DNA from: a plasmid
Assembly: GCF_054482595.1 (NCBI RefSeq)
Contig: NZ_JBTHVH010000001.1
Strand: one strand, 5' to 3'
DNA: 64,000 nucleotides
Shown here piece by piece: positions 2,255 to 52,775 of this stretch. The position numbers and the translations under genes were made by a program. The first letter of the stretch is position 1, and the number at the start of each line of letters is the position of its first letter. The notes beneath the pieces are model-generated. The model was not told where the DNA came from. It saw only the letters and a program-made list of their open reading frames with translations, and did no database searches.

Positions 2255-2476
2255 ATGGTTAATGCCAATCCTTGCGCACGCCAAGAATTCATCTGGCGTT
2301 TCTATTCCTGCAAAAAACACCACTATCACTTCGTCATCGCAGCAACAGAAGACGAAGCACGCTCTCAATTGCCTGATGGCCCCTGCATTTTTACTGCCCG
2401 TTTTTCAACTAACTCGCGCAATTCACTTAGTTACTGGAACCTCCCCTTCTCTTCCGACGTTCAGGGGGTTTTATGA
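2255..2476 (+). CDS. icd: Icd-like small protein (73 aa), translationally coupled to ant
   Basis: 73-aa ORF whose stop overlaps the ant start (ATGA); position and size match P1 icd. Confidence 0.65.
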   Translation: MVNANPCARQEFIWRFYSCKKHHYHFVIAATEDEARSQLPDGPCIFTARFSTNSRNSLSYWNLPFSSDVQGVL

Positions 2477-3516
2477 AAAAACCTCTCGTCACCCGTAATG
2501 ACATAGCCGAAGCGATCGCACTGCATACTGCCTGTATGCCGACACGGGAGATCCCCGGCGCAATTGCCAACTATTTCATGATAACCAGACGTTTTTATAC
2601 CCGAACAGATAAGGCTGTGATCAACAGGCTACTGATAGCCGAGATCAGGGATTATTTGATTGAACAAGGACGTCTACGTTACGCAACGGTGGCAGCAGAA
2701 ATGAGAAAGGAGGCACATAGAATGACCAGTAATAATTTGAATGTTAAAAAACCAGCATCTGTTGCTTCAGCTACGCCATCACCAGCTGTGAATGTTATCT
2801 CCAACACTGGAGACACAATCGACAGCCAGACGCTGTTAAAGATGGTCAATGAAGCGCGTAAGTTATGTGGGGAACCAGAGGTTCGGAACAACAAATTCAT
2901 CAAAAAAATACTCGACGAATTAGAAGGTGAGGACGGTTACACAAAAAGTGCAACCGTGCCGCCAGGTGGCGGTACGCCTATGGTTGTCATAACCATGACC
3001 TACAAACAAGCCCTGCGAGTCGCCGCGCGCGAGTCAAAAGCAGTCCGCCGTTCGCTGATCGACAAACTGGAAGAATTGCAGCAGGCAAACTCCCCTGCCC
3101 CATCGATCCCCCAAACATTACCAGACGCTCTACGCCTGGCTGCCGAGTTGGCAGAACAGAAAATGCAGTTGGAACAACAGCTGGTGGCCGCAGCCCCTAA
3201 AGTCGATTTTGCCGACCGGGTATCAGCGGCTAATGGAATCCTGATCGGGAACTTTGCAAAGGTCGTTGGACTTAAGCAAAACGCCCTTTTCTCATGGTTG
3301 CGCCAGAACGGCATTCTCATGGCTTTTGGTGCGCGCAAAAACGTACCGCGCCAGCAGTACATTAACGCCGGGTATTTCACGGTGAAAGAAGTGGTGCTGG
3401 ATGATGAAAATGGCTACCAGATACGGCTGACGCCCCAATTAACGGGTAAAGGCCAGCAGTGGTTAACTCGCAAGCTACTTGATGCTGGTTTGTTAAAACC
3501 AGTAGCAATAGGTTAA
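2473..3516 (+). CDS. ant: antirepressor Ant (C-terminal KilAC-type domain)
   Basis: 347 aa; C-terminal PKVDFADRVS...GNFAKVVGLKQN...YFTVKE motif block typical of phage antirepressors; sits downstream of c4/icd and upstream of kilA as in P1. Confidence 0.75.
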   Translation: MKKPLVTRNDIAEAIALHTACMPTREIPGAIANYFMITRRFYTRTDKAVINRLLIAEIRDYLIEQGRLRYATVAAEMRKEAHRMTSNNLNVKKPASVASATPSPAVNVISNTGDTIDSQTLLKMVNEARKLCGEPEVRNNKFIKKILDELEGEDGYTKSATVPPGGGTPMVVITMTYKQALRVAARESKAVRRSLIDKLEELQQANSPAPSIPQTLPDALRLAAELAEQKMQLEQQLVAAAPKVDFADRVSAANGILIGNFAKVVGLKQNALFSWLRQNGILMAFGARKNVPRQQYINAGYFTVKEVVLDDENGYQIRLTPQLTGKGQQWLTRKLLDAGLLKPVAIG

Positions 3517-12784: not shown

Positions 12785-13786
12785 TTAAGGCTTCGGCTTT
12801 TTATCGAGGCTCTTTCTAAGGATATGCCCAATCATCCTGTCGAGTTCTTCCTGTAGCTCTTTTGAAAGTCGATTAAACTCATAAGAAAATGCACGGCCTT
12901 TCACGCGCTTCCTTGCAAAGCGATCCTTGTCCTCAAATTTCCATAATTCAGTAACTACGGACTTATCTTTAGAACCTTTATCCGTGAGTAGTGAGGCTTC
13001 CTTTGTTATCAAGCGCAGGATTTTATTTTTAACTTCATCTTCGGCCATTTCTTCAATGGATAAGATGTCGTTTATTTCCGGGGATATGTTTTGAATAAGC
13101 TGATCAAACTCTAAATTCTTGTTCCCCATTTCGTCGCCAACAGCACAAAGCGTTTTGTAGTCCGAAAAGGTTAATTCCGACTGCACAGGGAAAAGGGCGA
13201 CTAATTCTTCCGGAGCACTCGCTGCCTGGAGAGCACGCGTGACCTTCGCCTGAGACAGCCCTTCTTTGGCTGCAATATCCTTCTGACTCATCCCATCATT
13301 TTTCATTCGCATCAAACGCAGACCTATTTCTCGAATGCTGTGCTGCAATGCTGTCTGAACGTCTTTCGCTAAATTTTGCGCTTCCTGAACGCTGATCTCC
13401 TGGTCCGTGACTAAAACCCGCAACCCTACGTTCTCTAAGATGGCAGAAGCTCGACGCCGGGAACCATCCAAAATTTCAATTTTCCCTGTAGCCCGTCTGA
13501 CACCTATTGCAGGGTAAAATTGCTGATGCTTAATAGTGCTTCGGATACTTTTTAATGATTTTGGCGTAAGAGATGCCTGGTCACGCCCGTTGTTATGCTG
13601 ATCAACAAAGGTATCGCTTTCTACCTGGTTCGGAGGTATTACCTCTTCAATAAATGTGGCCTGGCGACCAGTTGATAACTTGAATACCTGCTCGACTCGA
13701 TCGCCAGAGGCTGAAGAACTATCAAATCCGCTTAATATTGAAGGATTAAGGGTTCGCCCAATTGTTGGTCTGTTTTTCTTTGACAT
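12785..13786 (-). CDS. parB: partition protein ParB
   Basis: 333 aa, directly upstream of parS and downstream of parA. Confidence 0.8.
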   Translation of the reverse strand: MSKKNRPTIGRTLNPSILSGFDSSSASGDRVEQVFKLSTGRQATFIEEVIPPNQVESDTFVDQHNNGRDQASLTPKSLKSIRSTIKHQQFYPAIGVRRATGKIEILDGSRRRASAILENVGLRVLVTDQEISVQEAQNLAKDVQTALQHSIREIGLRLMRMKNDGMSQKDIAAKEGLSQAKVTRALQAASAPEELVALFPVQSELTFSDYKTLCAVGDEMGNKNLEFDQLIQNISPEINDILSIEEMAEDEVKNKILRLITKEASLLTDKGSKDKSVVTELWKFEDKDRFARKRVKGRAFSYEFNRLSKELQEELDRMIGHILRKSLDKKPKP

Positions 13787-13802: not shown

Positions 13803-14999
13803 TCAGTTAGATCTGATAAATTCAATACGGTCAAAAACTGCTTTAGCAAAATCTTCCGCAGCAATTCGCGCGTTCTTCAATGCATCAGCACTACCAACAT
13901 ACGTTGCCGGGTTAGCTGAAATAACAGTGTCAAAAGACTCGCCGCAGCGTTCAAAACCGTCAAGGCGAGGGAGGACAACATCAAGCATATCCCCACCGAA
14001 CACTTCTTTAGCCAGGCTATGGCAATACTTATGGTCTGCCTTGTTACTCAACTTGGACATAAAACCAATGTTAGTTGCAAGCTGACACTCGCAGCCTTCA
14101 TCCGAAATGAGTTTCACCAACTCAGGAAGGCGGGCAACGTATTTAAGCGATGAGTGGAAATCAACCGTTGCAGGCGGCAGAGGTGTAAACAGTATATTGG
14201 CCGAGGCCAAAGCATTTTTCAGGAAGGCGTCAAGGTGAGGACCACTATCAACGAGGATAAAGTCATAATCGCTCTTCAGCTTATCAATCACATTCTCTTT
14301 CAGGACAGCATGGATGTTCTGACCCGGTAGATGCTCATTGCACAGCTCTCTCCAATCGGATGCAATAAAGGCATCGTCAATCGACGCAGGCATAACGTCA
14401 ACCCCAGGTACAACAGAAGGAACAATAAACTCCTCTAACAGCTCTTCACGGCTTACATTCTGCAACATAGCCTGTGCAGATGTTGCGTTTACGATACCAA
14501 TAGAGTGTTTATGGCTTAAAAACATCGTTGCTGAAGATTGCGGATCAAGGTCAATAACCAGAATCCTTAAATCTTCCATCAGAAGATGAGGGTGGGCACG
14601 CATTGCATGCGCCAGAGAAACCGTCGATACAGTTTTTGACACACCGCCTTTAAGATTGGAGATGAAAATCACATACGCTTCGCTGTAGCGATCCCGGTAT
14701 TTTGGCACTCCGCGATGTTCATATATGTCAATGATGTTCTGAATTGACATCGCATATTTCATTGAAGAGCCAGCAGGGCGTTTATCGAAAACATAACCCT
14801 TTTCTTCCATTTCACTTACGGCATAGTCAACGTTCGCACGAGTCAGTAGAGGCAATTTTGCCAGTGCCGCTTTCGCATAGACCTGGTAAAACTCGTTCGC
14901 GTGTAGCTCATCCTTTTGCAACTGTACTTGTTCAGTCAGAACATTGAGCATTCTATTTGCTCTTTGAGCAACCTTGTGAAGCTGGCTGGAATCACTCAT
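13803..14999 (-). CDS. parA: partition ATPase ParA
   Basis: 398 aa; deviant Walker A KGGVSKT; begins MSDSSQLHKVAQRANRMLNV as P1 ParA. Confidence 0.85.
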   Translation of the reverse strand: MSDSSQLHKVAQRANRMLNVLTEQVQLQKDELHANEFYQVYAKAALAKLPLLTRANVDYAVSEMEEKGYVFDKRPAGSSMKYAMSIQNIIDIYEHRGVPKYRDRYSEAYVIFISNLKGGVSKTVSTVSLAHAMRAHPHLLMEDLRILVIDLDPQSSATMFLSHKHSIGIVNATSAQAMLQNVSREELLEEFIVPSVVPGVDVMPASIDDAFIASDWRELCNEHLPGQNIHAVLKENVIDKLKSDYDFILVDSGPHLDAFLKNALASANILFTPLPPATVDFHSSLKYVARLPELVKLISDEGCECQLATNIGFMSKLSNKADHKYCHSLAKEVFGGDMLDVVLPRLDGFERCGESFDTVISANPATYVGSADALKNARIAAEDFAKAVFDRIEFIRSN

Positions 15000-15984: not shown

Positions 15985-16240
15985 CCACTGCTTGATGAGA
16001 ACCGCGCAAATGTTGACTATGCGCGATGTGACTACAGTCAAAAGTTGACTGTAGTCGATTTAACTCCACCAAAGATCGACTATGTAAGATATTGTCGGGA
16101 GAAACGTTGACTATACGCGATGAAATGCCCCTAAAAGCCATCTCAATAGCGACTTGCAGAATATTGACGCCAGCAAAAATCCACCAGCGTCAACGAATGT
16201 CGCCTATAGTCAACTTCTCGCTATCGCATATAGTCAATAT
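15985..16240. repeat. incA: incA-like iteron array downstream of repA
   Basis: Multiple copies of the core (C/T)(A/G)TAGTCAA(C/T) in both orientations. Confidence 0.65.
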
Positions 16241-17124
16241 TATGGATTGCGCTTATGGATCTGGAAGCCGATTTTCCTGCCGTTTTTTATCTCTGAAAAT
16301 TTAAGATATTCAATAGCTTCCAAATCTTTCATGGCTTTTCTGATAACGCTATTTTGCACGCTAACGGATGATTTGAGATTAAGCCTCGCTCTAAGGCGCT
16401 CAATGCTGACAGGTGCCGGGTTGGCGGGTAGAGCCTCAAAGAATGTATACAGTACCTTGGCCGTCTCTTTGCGCCCTAGTTTATCCAGCATCTTCAGCTT
16501 CAGGATTCGCTTATAGTCAACATAGTAAAGTTCAGATAGCTGTTTCTGCGGCTGGATCTCGATAACATCAAGCTCGGTATTCAGGCTGCTATATGCCAAC
16601 AAGTTGACGTTAATGTTATTGAGATGACCTTTTGCCGCCGGGAAGCGGAATTTGACAACTGTCTGCTGAATGCGTGTCAGAGAGTCATCAATACTTTTAC
16701 GGAACGCCTTTGAAAGGCGCTTACGTGGATAGCCGCATCGATCGGCAAACTCGGAGAATGGCAGGGTGATTATGCCGTCATCATCAGGTGCGTAGTCAAA
16801 CAACGCGGAGGTTATGCCCACCCACACCTTAAAATCAGTATCCATATCCAGGCGTGGACCATGAATTTCAATTCCCTCATAGCCTTCCTGCTCAACAATT
16901 TTGAGGCTTGATAGTTCTTCAGTTGCGTTCGTTGTGTTTGTTGTAACTGACGATCCGCGACGTAGCGCCACATTGGTAGATTTTAAGGTTGGCACAAACA
17001 CACCTAAGCGCAACAAAGCGATGGGTTGTATAGTGCTGTTGTTATTGGGCTTCAGGCTGTGGATTTCTCCTGTATTTCCTGCAACTTCTTCAACGCTAAG
17101 GAAGCCTTTACTTTCTTCCGGCAT
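16240..17124 (-). CDS. repA: plasmid replication initiator RepA (iteron-binding), divergent from P1 RepA
   Basis: Flanked by iteron arrays; preferred ATG at 17124 with GGAG Shine-Dalgarno (track start 17160); blocks such as GPRLDMDTDFK and PLALLRLGVFVP resemble P1 RepA. Confidence 0.75.
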   Translation of the reverse strand: MPEESKGFLSVEEVAGNTGEIHSLKPNNNSTIQPIALLRLGVFVPTLKSTNVALRRGSSVTTNTTNATEELSSLKIVEQEGYEGIEIHGPRLDMDTDFKVWVGITSALFDYAPDDDGIITLPFSEFADRCGYPRKRLSKAFRKSIDDSLTRIQQTVVKFRFPAAKGHLNNINVNLLAYSSLNTELDVIEIQPQKQLSELYYVDYKRILKLKMLDKLGRKETAKVLYTFFEALPANPAPVSIERLRARLNLKSSVSVQNSVIRKAMKDLEAIEYLKFSEIKNGRKIGFQIHKRNP

Positions 17125-17164
17125 CACGGTTTCTCCATGTGTGGCGCGGCCTGACGTCAATTTG

Positions 17165-23858: not shown

Positions 23859-23934
23859 GATGGTGTAGCTCAGCGGTTAGAGCGGTTGACTGTTAATCAA
23901 CGGGTCGATGGTTCAAATCCATCCACCATCGCCA
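23859..23934 (+). tRNA. tRNA-Asn (anticodon GTT)
   Basis: Manual cloverleaf: acceptor GATGGTG/CACCATC, D arm GCTC-AGCGGTTA-GAGC, anticodon loop CTGTTAA, T arm GATGG-TTCAAAT-CCATC, CCA encoded. Confidence 0.85.
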
Positions 23935-23936
23935 AT

Positions 23937-24012
23937 GCCGGTTTAGCTCAGTTGGTAGAGCGCCTGCCTTGTAAGCAGGATGTCAGCGGTTCGAGTCCGT
24001 TAATCGGCACCA
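23937..24012 (+). tRNA. tRNA-Thr (anticodon TGT)
   Basis: Acceptor GCCGGTT/AATCGGC (one G-U), anticodon loop CTTGTAA, T loop TTCGAGT, CCA encoded. Confidence 0.8.
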
Positions 24013-24014
24013 GC

Positions 24015-24100
24015 ACAACAGGTAAGGGTATTTTGCGACGTCGGAGATCGCCGAGCTTGGCAGAGGGTTCGAATCCCTACGAAGTACCCTTACCGTTGTG
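24015..24100 (+). other. structured tRNA-like element: about 16-bp stem enclosing a T-loop-like GGTTCGAATCC core; not a canonical tRNA
   Basis: CACAACAGGTAAGGGTA pairs with TACCCTTACCGTTGTG; starts immediately after tRNA-Thr. Confidence 0.4.
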
Positions 24101-24744
24101 ATGAAGTGCAGCTCTTTGAAGCAACCAGAAGATAAGCATCTGGCTTCACAACATAAACCGCAGGAACGACCAATAAACGGTAGTCCGTATGGAGAACACC
24201 CCGTTGAGGAAGAGGCCTGGCCGGAACCGTAACCGGCACTACAACGTTGAGAACACTGGCGTAACGGGGTCATATCCCAATCTACGAATAAATGTTGCGT
24301 TGCAGCGTGACAACCAGTGTTCTCAACATTGTGGTGAATGCACAGGCTGATGTGCCGCAACTACAGTAGTGCGCGCTTTGCGGGGCTTGCTACAACCCTG
24401 TGTCGGAGTTCAGCACCGACCATCACAGTTTGATTCTCTGGCATGAGCATAACGCTGAAATAAGTCCAGCCTGGTGCGGCCCGATCACCCGCCGTTAGCT
24501 CCACGAAACGGAGCACGTAACAGGTAAGAGCATTCTCCTGTAACGGGTTCATATCCCAATCTACAGGTCCACCAAGAATGCTCTTTCCGTTGCGGTGAAT
24601 GCGGCTAAGCACACGCGGGGAAATGGTTATATCAGTCCATTCATTTCTCCTTGTTTCCCCGTCCACGGTGGATAACCAGCCAAAGGACACCGGGAGGCAC
24701 CCGGCACCGCAGCTTTTTTATTCGTTAAATAATGGAGTGAGAGG

Positions 24745-24981
24745 ATGCAGAACAATCCGAACAAATGTCGAACGCTATGGGTGCGGTTATATATTTATGC
24801 CGTCCTCTGTTTGATTGTGTCACTGGTTCTGTATGTTTGGCTTTTGCCAAATATGATCTCATCTAACAGCACAATACTTGTATTGTTGGGAGTCCTTCTC
24901 GCGCTCATTTACCCGGCTTTCGCAGTAGTCTTTTTTCGTGAAAAAACCAGGAAATTAATTAATGAAAAAAACGTTGATTAG
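24745..24981 (+). CDS. small membrane protein (two predicted TM helices)
   Basis: 78-aa ORF overlapping the start of the SPFH lipoprotein gene. Confidence 0.4.
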   Translation: MQNNPNKCRTLWVRLYIYAVLCLIVSLVLYVWLLPNMISSNSTILVLLGVLLALIYPAFAVVFFREKTRKLINEKNVD

Positions 24982-25789
24982 TGCAGCGATTATTTTGGGT
25001 TCTTTATGTCTGACCGGATGCGATCGGGTAGAGCCAGGTAACGTAGGGATCAAAGTAAATAAGCTGGGGGATGATAAAGGTATCGGTGAAGTAGTTGGCG
25101 TTGGTCGCTACTGGACAGGCTTGAATACTGAAGTTTATATCTTCCCGACCTTTAAGCAAATGAAGACATACGATGAGCCGTTCAGCTTCCAGATGAGCGA
25201 CGGAACAACCATTGGTTACCACATCGGCGTAGCCTACAAGGTTGATCCAGCAAAAGTCACAACGGTATTTCAGACCTATCGCAAAGGTGTAGATGATATT
25301 ACTGATACCGATCTACGCCAGAAGGTTGCAGATGCTCTGAACCGGTTAGCCAGCAAAATGACCACCGACAAATTTATCGACGGTGGCAAATCTGAATTGC
25401 TTGATGCAGCCCTTAAAGACATTCAGGAAGAAATGACGCCAATCGGCATTCAGGTGATGAGCCTCTCTTATGTAGGTAAGCCAGAATACCCGCCAACAGT
25501 TATTGACAGTATTAACGCCAAAGTCACGGCAAACCAAAAAACCCTGCAACGCGAGCAAGAGGTCAAACAACGTGAAGCAGAGGCCAACATGCTGCGCGCG
25601 GAAGCTGCCGGACAGGCTGATGCTATTCGCACAAAAGCCCAGGCCGAAGCTGATGCCATTCGTTTACGTGGTGAAGCTCTGCGCCAGAACCCCGGTGTTA
25701 TGGAGTTGGAAGCGATCAACAAATGGAACGGTACATTACCGCAGTATATGACCAGTAATACCGCTGTTCCGTTTGTTCCGGTGAAATAA
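24962..25789 (+). CDS. SPFH/band-7-like lipoprotein
   Basis: Lipobox LTGC; Ala/Glu/Gln-rich coiled coil near C-terminus. Confidence 0.55.
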   Translation: MKKTLISAAIILGSLCLTGCDRVEPGNVGIKVNKLGDDKGIGEVVGVGRYWTGLNTEVYIFPTFKQMKTYDEPFSFQMSDGTTIGYHIGVAYKVDPAKVTTVFQTYRKGVDDITDTDLRQKVADALNRLASKMTTDKFIDGGKSELLDAALKDIQEEMTPIGIQVMSLSYVGKPEYPPTVIDSINAKVTANQKTLQREQEVKQREAEANMLRAEAAGQADAIRTKAQAEADAIRLRGEALRQNPGVMELEAINKWNGTLPQYMTSNTAVPFVPVK

Positions 25790-25816
25790 AAGCGTAAGCA
25801 AAATTGGCAGTAATCC

Positions 25817-25892
25817 GGCCCTTTAGCTCAGTGGTTAGAGCTGGCGACTCATAATCGCACGGTCACCGGTTCAAGTCCGGTAGGGGCCACCA
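25817..25892 (+). tRNA. tRNA-Ile2 (anticodon CAT, lysidine type; Met not excluded)
   Basis: Sequence closely resembles E. coli ileX as recalled; acceptor GGCCCTT/AGGGGCC, anticodon loop CTCATAA, T loop TTCAAGT. Confidence 0.75.
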
Positions 25893-42420: not shown

Positions 42421-42936
42421 ATGGCGTTAACACACCGCGAACTCTGTCAGATTGCGTACAAGTTCCTTAAGCGCAACGGGTTCAAGGTTTGTTTTCATGA
42501 CCGCTTTATAGCTGTAACCAGTACCGGAGAACAGCCAGATGCTATGGGATTCAGAAATTCAGCATCATGCCTGATAGAGGCGAAATGTTCTCGTGCTGAC
42601 TTGTTGGCAGATAGAAAAAAGCGTTTTCGTAAAAATCCGTCTCTTGGAATGGGCGACTGGCGATTCTTTATTAGTGAGCCGGGAATTATTTCAATTGAGG
42701 ATTTACCACCTGGCTGGGGATTACTTCACGTTGTTAACGGAAGAGTACGGAAAGTACATGGGTGGCCCAAGGGTAATTGCTGTTGGGGTAATCCTGACGA
42801 TAAGCCATTTACTGGAAATAAGCAGGTTGAATGCGATTACATGTTATCTGCATTAAGGCGCATGGAGTTAAGAGGGCACCTTAATGAAATATATGACGGT
42901 GTAATTGTTAATAAGAAAGAAGGAAACGCGGCATGA
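42421..42936 (+). CDS. putative PD-(D/E)xK-type nuclease-like protein
   Basis: ATG at 42421 with GGAG Shine-Dalgarno; EQPDAMGF...CLIEAKCSRADL spacing. Confidence 0.35.
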   Translation: MALTHRELCQIAYKFLKRNGFKVCFHDRFIAVTSTGEQPDAMGFRNSASCLIEAKCSRADLLADRKKRFRKNPSLGMGDWRFFISEPGIISIEDLPPGWGLLHVVNGRVRKVHGWPKGNCCWGNPDDKPFTGNKQVECDYMLSALRRMELRGHLNEIYDGVIVNKKEGNAA

Positions 42937-43841
42937 TCACTATTACCAAAGAGCGACTACTGACAATCAAGCAGTGGCGCGAAACATACGGACCTGGTAG
43001 CAACGTTGTACTGCCAGCAGAAGAAGCGGAAGAACTGGCACGAATTGCTCTGGCATCGCTGGAGCAGAATGTACTATCGGGCAACTCTCCGCTTATTCCT
43101 GGTGAAGTGTTGTCCGCAATCCGGGAGGTTGCCAGGATTCGTGCCGATTTCGATGATTTTGACGGTGACAGGCGAGGTATCGGTGATTGTCTGGATGAGG
43201 CCGAGCAAGAGCTTATCGTTACCATTAACAAATATGCCAGTCAGTTGGCAGCAGAACCGATAGCGACTAATGACGTTCGAGAGCAAACAGCCGTTCCGCC
43301 AATACAGGCTGATGTCGCGCAAGCAATTGAAAATCTCAAGCAGAAGTTAGTGGAATGCAATCGCTATAACTACTGCGCAGATGCAGTGAAGAACGTAGAG
43401 GATGCCTGCCGTGCTGTTAGCTATAGCCAAGCCGACAATCAGCCAGCATCTGGCAACCAGGCTGCCGAATCCAATCGCGGTAATGAGTGGACTGGCAATC
43501 CTGATATTGATAACGCCATCATCATGCTCGACCGCATAGATACGCTGGAAAATTGCGATGATGACCGTATTGAGGCTGTTAAGGCTGTTTTGCGTAGACT
43601 GGCTGGCAACTCTCCGGTAACTCCGGATGGTTGGATAAGCTGTAGTGAGCGAATGCCGGATACCAAAACAGCCGTTCTTGTTGCCAGGGAGTTTGACAGG
43701 AAAGGTGACTGGCGAATGAAATGGGCGACTTACATCCCGGGGCATCCTGACGCTAATGATGGGTGGGTAATACCTGGTGCGTCGTGGATTCCATCACACT
43801 GGATGCCGCTACCAGAACCGCCGCAGGAGGTGAATCAATGA
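42933..43841 (+). CDS. hypothetical protein with DUF551-like C-terminus
   Basis: WISCSERMP...VLVA...WMPLPEPP block. Confidence 0.4.
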   Translation: MITITKERLLTIKQWRETYGPGSNVVLPAEEAEELARIALASLEQNVLSGNSPLIPGEVLSAIREVARIRADFDDFDGDRRGIGDCLDEAEQELIVTINKYASQLAAEPIATNDVREQTAVPPIQADVAQAIENLKQKLVECNRYNYCADAVKNVEDACRAVSYSQADNQPASGNQAAESNRGNEWTGNPDIDNAIIMLDRIDTLENCDDDRIEAVKAVLRRLAGNSPVTPDGWISCSERMPDTKTAVLVAREFDRKGDWRMKWATYIPGHPDANDGWVIPGASWIPSHWMPLPEPPQEVNQ

Positions 43842-43905
43842 GCTGGCCTGAAGCATTCACCACGGTAGGAATTGTGATGGCGGCAGCACTGGGTTTGTAT
43901 TCAAT

Positions 43906-44157
43906 TTGTCGCTGGTGGTAACGATGGGAAAAATAACTTTTGTAGTCGAATTTGAGGATGGCAAAGAGCCACCTGTTAGCGCCAATCTTGATGTTGCTGG
44001 TGGCAGGCTTGTTTCGGTTCTATTTGGTGACTACCGAGATGACTTCTTCCAACCAGAAGAAGTTGATGTAGTGCGAGAGGCATTAAACGAGTTAAGTGTT
44101 GATAACGATGATGCTCATGCGGAAATCATCCAAAAAATGGAACTGCTAACTCACTAA
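43906..44157 (+). CDS. hypothetical small protein
   Basis: TTG start in track; ATG at 43924 possible. Confidence 0.3.
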   Translation: MSLVVTMGKITFVVEFEDGKEPPVSANLDVAGGRLVSVLFGDYRDDFFQPEEVDVVREALNELSVDNDDAHAEIIQKMELLTH

Positions 44158-46591: not shown

Positions 46592-46981
46592 ATGGGCTTC
46601 CCTTCTCCTGCGGCGGATTATGTTGAAAGCCGAATTTCTCTTGATCAGCAGATAATTAGACATCCTTCAGCGACCTACTTCATGCGGGCAGCTGATAGCC
46701 ATCACCGTGAGGGAATATTGCAGGGTGCTTTGCTGGTGGTTGATTCCTCGCTTACTCCGGTTGATGGTTCTCTGCTTGTGTGCGCTATGGAGGGTGAATA
46801 TCGCATAAAGAGATACAGGAAGTATCCGCGCCAGCACCTGGAGGACTTAAGCACCGGGAAGAAAGAGGCGTTACCAGTAGATGACGATGGATACACGGGC
46901 AGTAATGCTGTTTTTGGTGTGATCACTCATGTCATCAATGATGCCCGAAGTGGGGAATTTGATGATTGTCCGGTTATTTAA
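46592..46981 (+). CDS. humD: UmuD-like protein
   Basis: 129 aa; UmuD'-like core; preceded by LexA box. Confidence 0.75.
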   Translation: MGFPSPAADYVESRISLDQQIIRHPSATYFMRAADSHHREGILQGALLVVDSSLTPVDGSLLVCAMEGEYRIKRYRKYPRQHLEDLSTGKKEALPVDDDGYTGSNAVFGVITHVINDARSGEFDDCPVI

Positions 46982-47047
46982 GCTGCAAAGTGCTGGTGCT
47001 TTATGCCTGTGAAGTTTATAATTGTGTACACATAACGAGTACACGAG

Positions 47048-47275
47048 GTGTTTATGCAATCCATTAACTTCCGTACCGCGCGTGGCAACCTTTCTGAAGT
47101 GCTCAACAATGTTGAAGCCGGGGAAGAGGTTGAAATCACCCGCAGAGGCCGTGAGCCAGCAGTAATTGTCAGCAAGGCTACTTTCGAAGCCTACAAAAAA
47201 GCGGCGCTGGATGCTGAATTTGCATCCCTGTTTGACACCCTGGACTCCACCAACAAGGAACTGGTTAACCGATAA
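47048..47275 (+). CDS. phd: Phd antitoxin
   Basis: 73 aa [39 protein letters not shown]... matches P1 Phd. Confidence 0.9.
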
Positions 47276-47655
47276 TGAGGCATATATCACCGGAAGAACT
47301 TATTGCGCTTCATGATGCGAATATAAACCGCTACGGCGGCCTGCCGGGAATGTCAGATCCGGGTAGGGCAGAGGCCATTATCGGGAGAGTTCAGGCCAGA
47401 GTTGCCTACGAAGAGATCACCGACCTTTTCGAAGTCTCCGCCACCTACCTGGTGGCTACAGCGAGAGGGCATATATTCAATGATGCCAATAAGCGTACCG
47501 CGCTAAACAGCGCGCTGCTATTTCTACGCCGTAACGGGGTGCAGGTATTTGATTCACCTGAACTGGCAGACCTTACTGTAGGCGCTGCGACTGGCGAGAT
47601 ATCTGTATCTTCTGTCGCCGACACGTTACGTAGATTGTATGGTTCTGCGGAGTAG
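47275..47655 (+). CDS. doc: Doc toxin (Fic-fold kinase)
   Basis: 126 aa, start overlaps the phd stop; [11 protein letters not shown]ic-like motif. Confidence 0.9.
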
Positions 47656-47659
47656 ATTA

Positions 47660-47839
47660 ATGGCACGCAAATACAACAAATTGTCCCGTGAAGCGTTAAA
47701 GATGCTTCTTGATGGCGTGAGTCGCCGCAAGGTAAAGCAATACCTGGTTGGTAAGCAAATTGGAGTCAGGACCGCTATTGCTGTGTTATGCCGTCAGGAA
47801 ATGGTTGTGCTTAAACAGAGAATGCCGGGCAGCAGATAA
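47660..47839 (+). CDS. small protein downstream of doc
   Basis: ATG at 47660 preferred. Confidence 0.35.
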   Translation: MARKYNKLSREALKMLLDGVSRRKVKQYLVGKQIGVRTAIAVLCRQEMVVLKQRMPGSR

Positions 47840-47866
47840 AGCCCAATCAGTGATTAAAGGTGTGAT

Positions 47867-48910
47867 GTGAAAGCCGTAATTACTCCCTTTGTACAGAAAG
47901 AGCTTGGCCTCGCCACGTTCAAAGTGGATCAGGAGGTCAGAAAGCTGGTGGAGGCTGGCCGTAAATTTATTATGGAGCCGGTGCCGCGTGAGTTAATCGA
48001 GCACATGGAAGACGGCCTCGTTGTTACCGAGCAAACCATGGCAACAAATGAGGCGTTGCAGCCGTTTTTTAACAGCGATGAACTGTTTCGCCGTATTGGT
48101 GGAATTGACGCGCTGGTGGCGTGGTTGCGTAGGAAAGAGAGTCAATGCCAGGCCGCAGATCGTAGTTGGTGTGACAACCATATTGTCCACGCTGAACGAG
48201 ACAATAGCGCGGTGTTGTTGTGCTGGCATCACGATAACCATTACCGGATGCGTGGTTTTAATGAGCTGAAAGAAACGCTGCACAATAATCGCGTTAACTG
48301 GATACTGGATGTCGCCCGTCAGGAAATGGGCCTTTCAAATAGCCATGATTTAAGTATTCAGGAGTTGTGCTGGTGGGCTTTCATGCGCAACATGATGCAC
48401 CTGATGCCGGAAGAAGTCTGCCGCATATCAATAAATAAGATGAAGGCTACTCCGCAGGATAGCGGACCTCTGAAAGAGGCGGATATTCGCCCGTATGACG
48501 ATCGCGCTACAGCATATGTTCAGATGATGGAAGAACGCGCCGCGCCGATGCGTGCAAAAGTATGCCCTGTGGATGTTGACTCCGACCCTGGCATGGCGCA
48601 TTTCAAAATACCAAAACTGCAATCGCTAAAATTACCTGAGTACATGGACTTTGTTGCTTCCCGTCCATGCTGTGGGTGTGGAGCGGCGGGAGCTGGCGCT
48701 CACATTACGCCTTATATCGTTCGTCATAGTCGATTATGCGCGCATGACATTTACGCAATTCCTCTGTGCCAGTCATGCCAGCGTGATATTGAGCGTGACC
48801 GCGATAATTGGGAGAAGACGCACGGTAGGCTGGCGATGCATCAACGATTGTTCTTTGATTACGCGCTTGGAGTCGGCGCTATCACAAGTTACTCGTCGAG
48901 TGTTAGATAA
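47867..48910 (+). CDS. hypothetical Cys-rich protein (347 aa)
   Basis: [12 protein letters not shown] and C-x2-C clusters. Confidence 0.45.
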
Positions 48911-48998: not shown

Positions 48999-49451
48999 AT
49001 GTTACTTAACTGGCAGGGACGCCACTTCATGGAAATAAATCACTCACGAATAACATCGTACGAGATTGCGGATTACATGATCCGCACTAAATCTCTTCTA
49101 TCAGCGAAAGAACTCGCAGCAATTCTTGAAAAGGAATACCCGCATCTGGATGTCGATAAGCGCGATGTTTATCTGCGCTTAAAGGCTATCGCTGTGTCTA
49201 AGTATTCGTCTGTTTTGATTGATGACAGTACACGCCCACGTAGATTTCAGATCCACTCTCTGAATCCTGAATTCTTTCGCCGTAGCCGCGCTCCGCGCCG
49301 GTTTGATGAAAAACTCCAGAACGAACTCTATATGACGCAGGACGAAAAGGAACGCCGGGAGCACCAGCCTTGGGTAATGGCGCGTCAACTTTTCAATAAG
49401 GTGGCCCGTCAGCACCGTCATTACGGTAATGCCACATCCGCACGTATCTGA
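48999..49451 (+). CDS. lpa: late promoter activator Lpa-like protein
   Basis: About 150 aa immediately upstream of pacA as in P1. Confidence 0.55.
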   Translation: MLLNWQGRHFMEINHSRITSYEIADYMIRTKSLLSAKELAAILEKEYPHLDVDKRDVYLRLKAIAVSKYSSVLIDDSTRPRRFQIHSLNPEFFRRSRAPRRFDEKLQNELYMTQDEKERREHQPWVMARQLFNKVARQHRHYGNATSARI

Positions 49452-52234: not shown

Positions 52235-52424
52235 TGTTTTTTAACTACCGATGTTACATTGAACCTGACCTCTTGCGCCTTGAGGCATTTTCGGTTTATG
52301 CTTATCAGGCACCTCAGTAAAACGGGTGCCGGGATTGGCCTCCCGCTTAAGTCTAAGGCGATACAGACGCCGCTCGCGTCTTTTTTTTGTATCGGCGTAC
52401 ACGCACACCTCTACAATGGTGGGC

Positions 52425-52497
52425 TGTATGGGGCTACCTTCGGGTAGGCTGGTTACCTTGGACGCCAGTAAGGCCAACTCCGTACAGTCCACCGCCA
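52425..52497 (+). ncRNA. c4-like antisense RNA of module B (approximate)
   Basis: Alignable with module A c4 region; specificity element ACCTTGGAC (52455-52463) complementary, with one G-U, to GTCTAAGG at 52351-52358 and 52535-52542. Confidence 0.4.
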
Positions 52498-52553
52498 GCA
52501 AGATTGGTCTCTTCTGCGGTGGTTACATACCAACGTCTAAGGAGGCTGCCAAT

Positions 52554-52775
52554 ATGGCTACTATCCCTACCCCAACTCATCCTGAATTTATCTGGCGCTT
52601 TTACTCCTGCCAAAAACGTCACTATCACTTCGTTATTGCACCGACAGAAGATGAGGCACGTTCTCAGCTTCCTGACGCCCCATGTATTTTCTCTGCCCGT
52701 TTTTCCACTGATTCACGCAATTCTCTCAGTTACTGGTGCCTCCCTGTTAACGCTTCTGCTCAGGAGGGACTATGA
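52554..52775 (+). CDS. Icd-like protein, module B
   Basis: 73 aa; paralogue of icd; stop overlaps ant-B start. Confidence 0.6.
   Translation: MATIPTPTHPEFIWRFYSCQKRHYHFVIAPTEDEARSQLPDAPCIFSARFSTDSRNSLSYWCLPVNASAQEGL

Follow-up and report, generated by a model that had tools for sequence, protein, structure and literature searches.

A P1/P7-type phd-doc toxin-antitoxin operon, very probably an addiction module, on a P1-like phage-plasmid

The phd-doc operon and its control region

In the 64-kb stretch of plasmid DNA analysed here (the window), a mechanical list of open reading frames places two frames on one strand, at 47048-47275 and 47275-47655. The first corresponds to the antitoxin gene phd and the second to the toxin gene doc. 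The features of the locus, in order along the DNA, are:

46994-46999, plus strand: -35 hexamer TGGTGC of the phd promoter (Pphd), transferred from the P1 annotation, the region being 100% identical
47017-47022, plus strand: -10 hexamer TATAAT of Pphd, transferred from the P1 annotation, identical sequence
47023-47032, no strand assigned: putative left operator site, an inverted repeat forming the perfect palindrome TGTGTACACA, identical to P1
47037-47044, no strand assigned: putative right operator site, the imperfect palindrome GAGTACAC, identical to P1
47045-47050, plus strand: Shine-Dalgarno sequence GAGGTG for phd, read from the sequence, ending 3 bases before the ATG at 47054
47054-47275, plus strand: phd, antitoxin gene, 73 amino acids plus stop, with ATG at 47054 and TAA at 47273-47275
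47275-47655, plus strand: doc, toxin gene, 126 amino acids plus stop, with ATG at 47275-47277 and TAG at 47653-47655
47326-47328, plus strand: codon 18 of doc, AAC for Asn, where P1 has AGC for Ser
47470-47496, plus strand: codons of the Doc catalytic motif, H66-I-F-N-D-A-N-K-R74, which fits HXFX(D/N)(A/G)NKR

The original prediction assigned a phd-doc addiction module to 47048-47655, and both frames are indeed present there, but the start of phd requires a correction of six bases: the GTG at 47048, the first in the mechanical reading frame, lies inside the Shine-Dalgarno sequence, and the ATG at 47054 is taken as the start because the P1 annotation and residue 1 of the crystallised protein agree on it. 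Both frames are open over their full length. The antitoxin gene comes first and the toxin gene directly after it on the same strand, and the overlap of stop and start that had been predicted takes the form of a TAATG junction, in which the TAA of phd and the ATG of doc share one base.

The predicted match to the Phd and Doc proteins of P1 was borne out along the whole of both sequences. Phd is identical at 73 of 73 residues to P1 Phd in PDB entries 3HRY (E 1.6e-42), 3K33, 4ZM0 and 4ZM2, and is the same sequence as the UniProt entry PHD_BPP1; its residues 51-73, the C-terminal Doc-binding segment, match the co-crystallised peptide 3DD7_B. It scores 49.8 bits against PF02604 of the Phd/YefM family (cut-off 29.8) and is above the cut-off for the NCBIfam model TIGR01552. 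Doc is identical at 125 of 126 residues to P1 Doc in PDB entry 3K33 (E 8.4e-78), the sole change being S18N, and it scores 38.6 bits against the Fic/Doc family PF02661 (cut-off 24) and 133.1 bits against TIGR01550 DOC_P1 (cut-off 38.65).

Disruption of the catalytic residues of Doc had been named as grounds for rejecting the assignment; residues 66-74 still read HIFNDANKR, an intact motif with His66 in place, and S18N falls outside it. The motif conforms to the Doc-type consensus, HXFX(D/N)(A/G)NKR (PMC13034048). An H66Y substitution makes Doc non-toxic, and this mutant was used for crystallography (PMC2686095); the 3DD7 sequence has Tyr at position 66 of Doc.

The 72 bases upstream of phd (46982-47053) are identical to P1 in an alignment with P1 and SJ46, so that promoter, operator and ribosome-binding site are all shared. 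A simple scan of 46900-47950 found no sigma-70 promoter, and Pphd was missed because its weak -35 hexamer (TGGTGC) falls below the rule of the scan, despite the perfect -10 hexamer TATAAT; the miss is therefore not read as absence of the promoter, which is assigned from the P1 annotation by way of the 100% identity. Directly downstream of the -10 hexamer come the two palindromes, between which an inverted repeat is formed by GTGTAC (47024-47029) and GTACAC (47039-47044). The Phd-Doc proteins of P1 engage two adjacent palindromic sites (PMC13034048; PMC4803016), to which the palindromes at 47023-47032 and 47037-47044 appear to correspond, their roles being taken from the literature. A terminator-like site inside doc (47499-47514) was rejected as a candidate, since one such site was found in 46900-47950 and 0.9 would be expected there by chance.

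Related systems, carrier element and distribution

The closest characterised relative is the phd-doc operon of phage P1 (NC_005856, P1_gp104 and P1_gp105; structures 3HRY, 3K33, 3KH2 and 3DD7), which has the same TAATG overlap, the same gene lengths and the same neighbours, with humD upstream and pdcA, pdcB and lpa downstream. The two genes together differ from those of P1 by five nucleotides, four of them synonymous: in a codon-by-codon comparison, phd has a single difference, at 47083, and doc has three synonymous differences, at 47355, 47511 and 47583, besides the non-synonymous one at 47327 that gives Asn18 here in place of Ser18 in P1. Asn18 is the allele of phage P7. In a translated search of phage records, Doc proved identical at all 126 residues, including Asn18, to Doc of P7 (AF503408 / NC_050152), RCS47, phi456 and SJ1, the modules of which differ from the copy described here by a few silent nucleotide changes. 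The P7 DNA is 99.2% identical to 46900-47800, and its annotation names the gene after doc fdc rather than pdcA. The Asn18 allele is very common, the exact Doc protein being recorded from at least 1000 contigs.

Other members of the family are distant relatives only. The chromosomal Phd-Doc modules of Salmonella Typhimurium, Enterococcus faecalis and Streptococcus pneumoniae and the canonical Fic AMP-transferases share the Fic/Doc fold family with Doc, and the Doc branch also shares the HxFx(D/N)(A/G)NKR motif and the antitoxin-first operon, but the best match among phage records that is not of the P1 type is 47% identical. The Phd protein of E. faecalis acts at one operator only, through a DNA-binding fold of a different type (PMC13034048), and canonical Fic enzymes have the motif HxFx(D/E)GNGRxxR and transfer AMP, not phosphate (PMC7758455).

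The gene order around the operon, humD-phd-doc-pdcA-pdcB-lpa-pacA-pacB, is that of P1 and SJ46, and the window as a whole runs collinear with CP099053.1, an E. coli plasmid of 98,362 bp, at about 98%. Besides pdcA and pdcB, which are treated below, the neighbouring genes and the replication and partition genes aligned with CP099053.1 are:

46592-46981: humD, Peptidase_S24, upstream of phd
48999-49451: lpa, BPP1_LPA, after pdcB and followed by pacA and pacB
16240-17160, minus strand: replication initiator gene (repA)
13803-14999: ParA
12785-13786: ParB

Three tRNA genes were predicted by ARAGORN within 23859-25892 (at 23859-24012 and 25817-25892): an Asn tRNA (GTT), a Thr tRNA (TGT) and one with anticodon CAT that the program calls Met. 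The three tRNA genes of P1 sit in the corresponding region, and the CAT tRNA there probably reads Ile after modification. Neither end of the window contains a stretch resembling a bacterial chromosome, and the sequence is P1-like from end to end; the module therefore lies on a P1-type plasmid prophage, within the genus Punavirus. An addiction module acts while its carrier is in the plasmid state, to which repA, parA and parB belong.

Copies of the module are common. The 686 bases of 46975-47660 are identical at every position in the E. coli P1-like plasmids CP099053.1, CP099043.1 and NZ_CP184157.1. This segment matches 1,246 plasmid records, and those with the module include 316 classed as conjugative and 221 as mobilizable. 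Within complete E. coli genomes it occurs in 1,316 records from 1,232 of 5,426 genomes; plasmids account for 1,244 of the 1,330 places involved, and chromosomes for 86. In two chromosome-labelled E. coli records, NZ_CP178203.1 (3576561-3577246) and NZ_CM148631.1 (4509861-4510546), the segment is present at 100% identity. Such places reflect either occasional integration of P1-like elements or of the humD-phd-doc block, or some assemblies in which plasmid and chromosome were joined; not every copy of the module need sit on a free plasmid. In a survey of P1-like phage-plasmids, phd, doc and pdcB belong to the 21 genes that are most conserved (PMC9603915). The 90%-identity protein cluster that holds Doc also lists proteins of 59-65 amino acids named PdcA, probably a clustering artefact of overlapping or adjacent gene calls and not a real similarity.

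Predicted function and alternative readings

Wherever sequence can test the original prediction of a phd-doc addiction module, namely in the family cut-offs, the catalytic motif, the control region and the plasmid setting, it is supported, and the sequence offers no counter-evidence. The Phd-Doc family was founded on this system, which is already known and is present here in its usual place, and the locus can be predicted with high confidence to be an intact type II toxin-antitoxin operon of the P1/P7 kind that acts as an addiction module on a P1-like phage-plasmid. Its value is for annotation, since it identifies the window as a plasmid prophage of the P1/P7 type whose stabilisation system is intact. 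P1-like elements are described as able to carry resistance genes and as hard to cure in accounts of such phage-plasmids (PMC9603915; PMC9600943).

The mechanism proposed here is carried over from the near-identical proteins of P1. Repression of the operon would come from Phd dimers bound to the two adjacent palindromes just downstream of the -10 hexamer. Doc is a co-repressor when scarce and a de-repressor when in excess (PMC4803016), and this conditional cooperativity would operate here as well, scarce Doc bridging Phd dimers to strengthen repression and excess Doc breaking up the repressing complex. The C-terminus of P1 Phd, which is disordered, folds onto Doc and prevents its activity (PMC4803016), and that of the identical Phd encoded here would be expected to block Doc in the same way. 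Doc of P1 phosphorylates EF-Tu at Thr382 (PMC4803016; PMC7758455); given identity at 125 of 126 residues, free Doc is likewise predicted to be a Fic-fold kinase that phosphorylates EF-Tu Thr382 and so stops translation. Phd is a substrate of ClpXP according to Lehnherr and Yarmolinsky 1995, as cited in PMC4803016, so that Phd would be degraded by the host protease while Doc is stable, and a plasmid-free daughter cell would run out of Phd first and undergo arrest or death. Alongside repA for replication and parA-parB for partition, phd-doc may thus keep the prophage in the cell lineage.

An alternative is that the module is active but confers its main benefit otherwise than by killing segregants, whether by abortive-infection defence against other phages, by competing with rival plasmids or by making the host more tolerant of stress. 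Doc has weak matches among the PADLOC models (PDC-M59B, E 3.2e-07; PDC-S23, E 1.4e-04), plasmid maintenance, persistence and phage defence all figure among the roles that reviews assign to type II toxin-antitoxin systems, as summarised in PMC10532202, and the module has spread widely outside P1-like plasmids, being found also in the conjugative and mobilizable plasmid records and at the chromosomal places enumerated above. The PADLOC matches, however, involve uncharacterised candidate families that have the Fic fold in common, and neither Phd nor PdcB has a PADLOC match; a defence-system label was accordingly rejected, the weak matches of Doc being insufficient for it. Moreover, the module was defined by the death of cells cured of their P1 prophage (Lehnherr et al. 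1993, as cited in PMC4803016), and here it occupies the same place on a P1-type plasmid prophage. A main benefit other than addiction is therefore quite unlikely, although addiction and other roles need not be exclusive.

A second alternative extends the operon to the two genes that follow doc:

47660-47839, plus strand: pdcA, neighbour gene, 59 amino acids; the P1 annotation starts pdcA at 47639
47867-48910, plus strand: pdcB, gene of a DUF968 protein, 347 amino acids (PF06147, E 4.5e-50), named pdcB in the P1 annotation

The name pdcA (PdcA) is used in P1 and related plasmids, and the protein has no match in Pfam or NCBIfam; PdcB is labelled an HNH endonuclease in RefSeq. The start of pdcA is 4 bases after the stop of doc, and a gap of 27 bases separates pdcA from pdcB. 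The P1 annotation has no promoter between doc and lpa, and a scan of 46900-47950 found no convincing terminator after doc, up to pdcB, so that pdcA and pdcB may be co-transcribed with phd-doc. This arrangement, along with the conservation of pdcB, which is as tight as that of phd and doc, would also accommodate a four-gene operon, phd-doc-pdcA-pdcB, in which PdcA and PdcB act with Doc-induced arrest or downstream of it, a reading that is distinctly improbable. In a smaller variant of it, the Ser18/Asn18 polymorphism could separate P1-type from P7-type Doc functionally.

There is still less reason to suppose that the module survives in a dead or weakened form, for instance because S18N impairs the toxicity or folding of Doc, and is carried as a passenger rather than a stabiliser of the plasmid. 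One non-synonymous difference from the P1 reference speaks for this, but the frames are full-length, and the catalytic motif and the control region are intact; the Asn18 form of Doc is identical in P7, RCS47, phi456 and SJ1 and on the many contigs noted above, and the differences from P1 are synonymous in four cases out of five, which is what purifying selection would produce. A decayed copy was rejected on the open frames, the intact motif and the mostly synonymous differences. Finally, that the two reading frames arose by chance, or belong to some other toxin-antitoxin family and are mislabelled, can be dismissed, since the E-values of 1.6e-42 for Phd and 8.4e-78 for Doc against the solved P1 proteins exclude a chance match, and both proteins show full-length identity and pass curated cut-offs. 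The preferred reading thus remains that of a P1/P7-type addiction module.

Variable regions of the carrier

The accessory regions of the three plasmids that carry the identical module (CP099053.1, CP099043.1 and NZ_CP184157.1) differ from those of the window, for example around 41.4-43.9 kb and 57.5-61.1 kb. At 57548-61056, between c8 and lxc, the gene set differs from the ref, mat and EcoPI res-mod genes of P1: it comprises an icd/antirepressor-like pair with a KilAC domain (57550-58602, minus strand), an open reading frame of 266 amino acids for an MBL-fold metallo-hydrolase (59297-60097, PF00753) and a mat-like open reading frame (60361-61056). The MBL-fold protein is far below every beta-lactamase cut-off and is without a PADLOC match. 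Plasmid pYZMc17-1_100k has the same layout, except that mat is followed there by a SIR2 gene, which is absent from the window.

The icd/antirepressor pair is one of several paralogous modules with KilAC domains in the window (52326-53890, 57550-58602 and 2473-3516), which cross-match at 77-95% identity, giving rise to secondary alignments, and which may favour rearrangements between modules. The other variable region, 41430-43912, aligns with CP099053.1 in patches only; genes there encode a protein resembling Ead/Ea22 (41411-42058) and one that contains DUF551 (42933-43841), and lambdoid-type accessory genes of this kind account for the many matches to Stx-converting phages.
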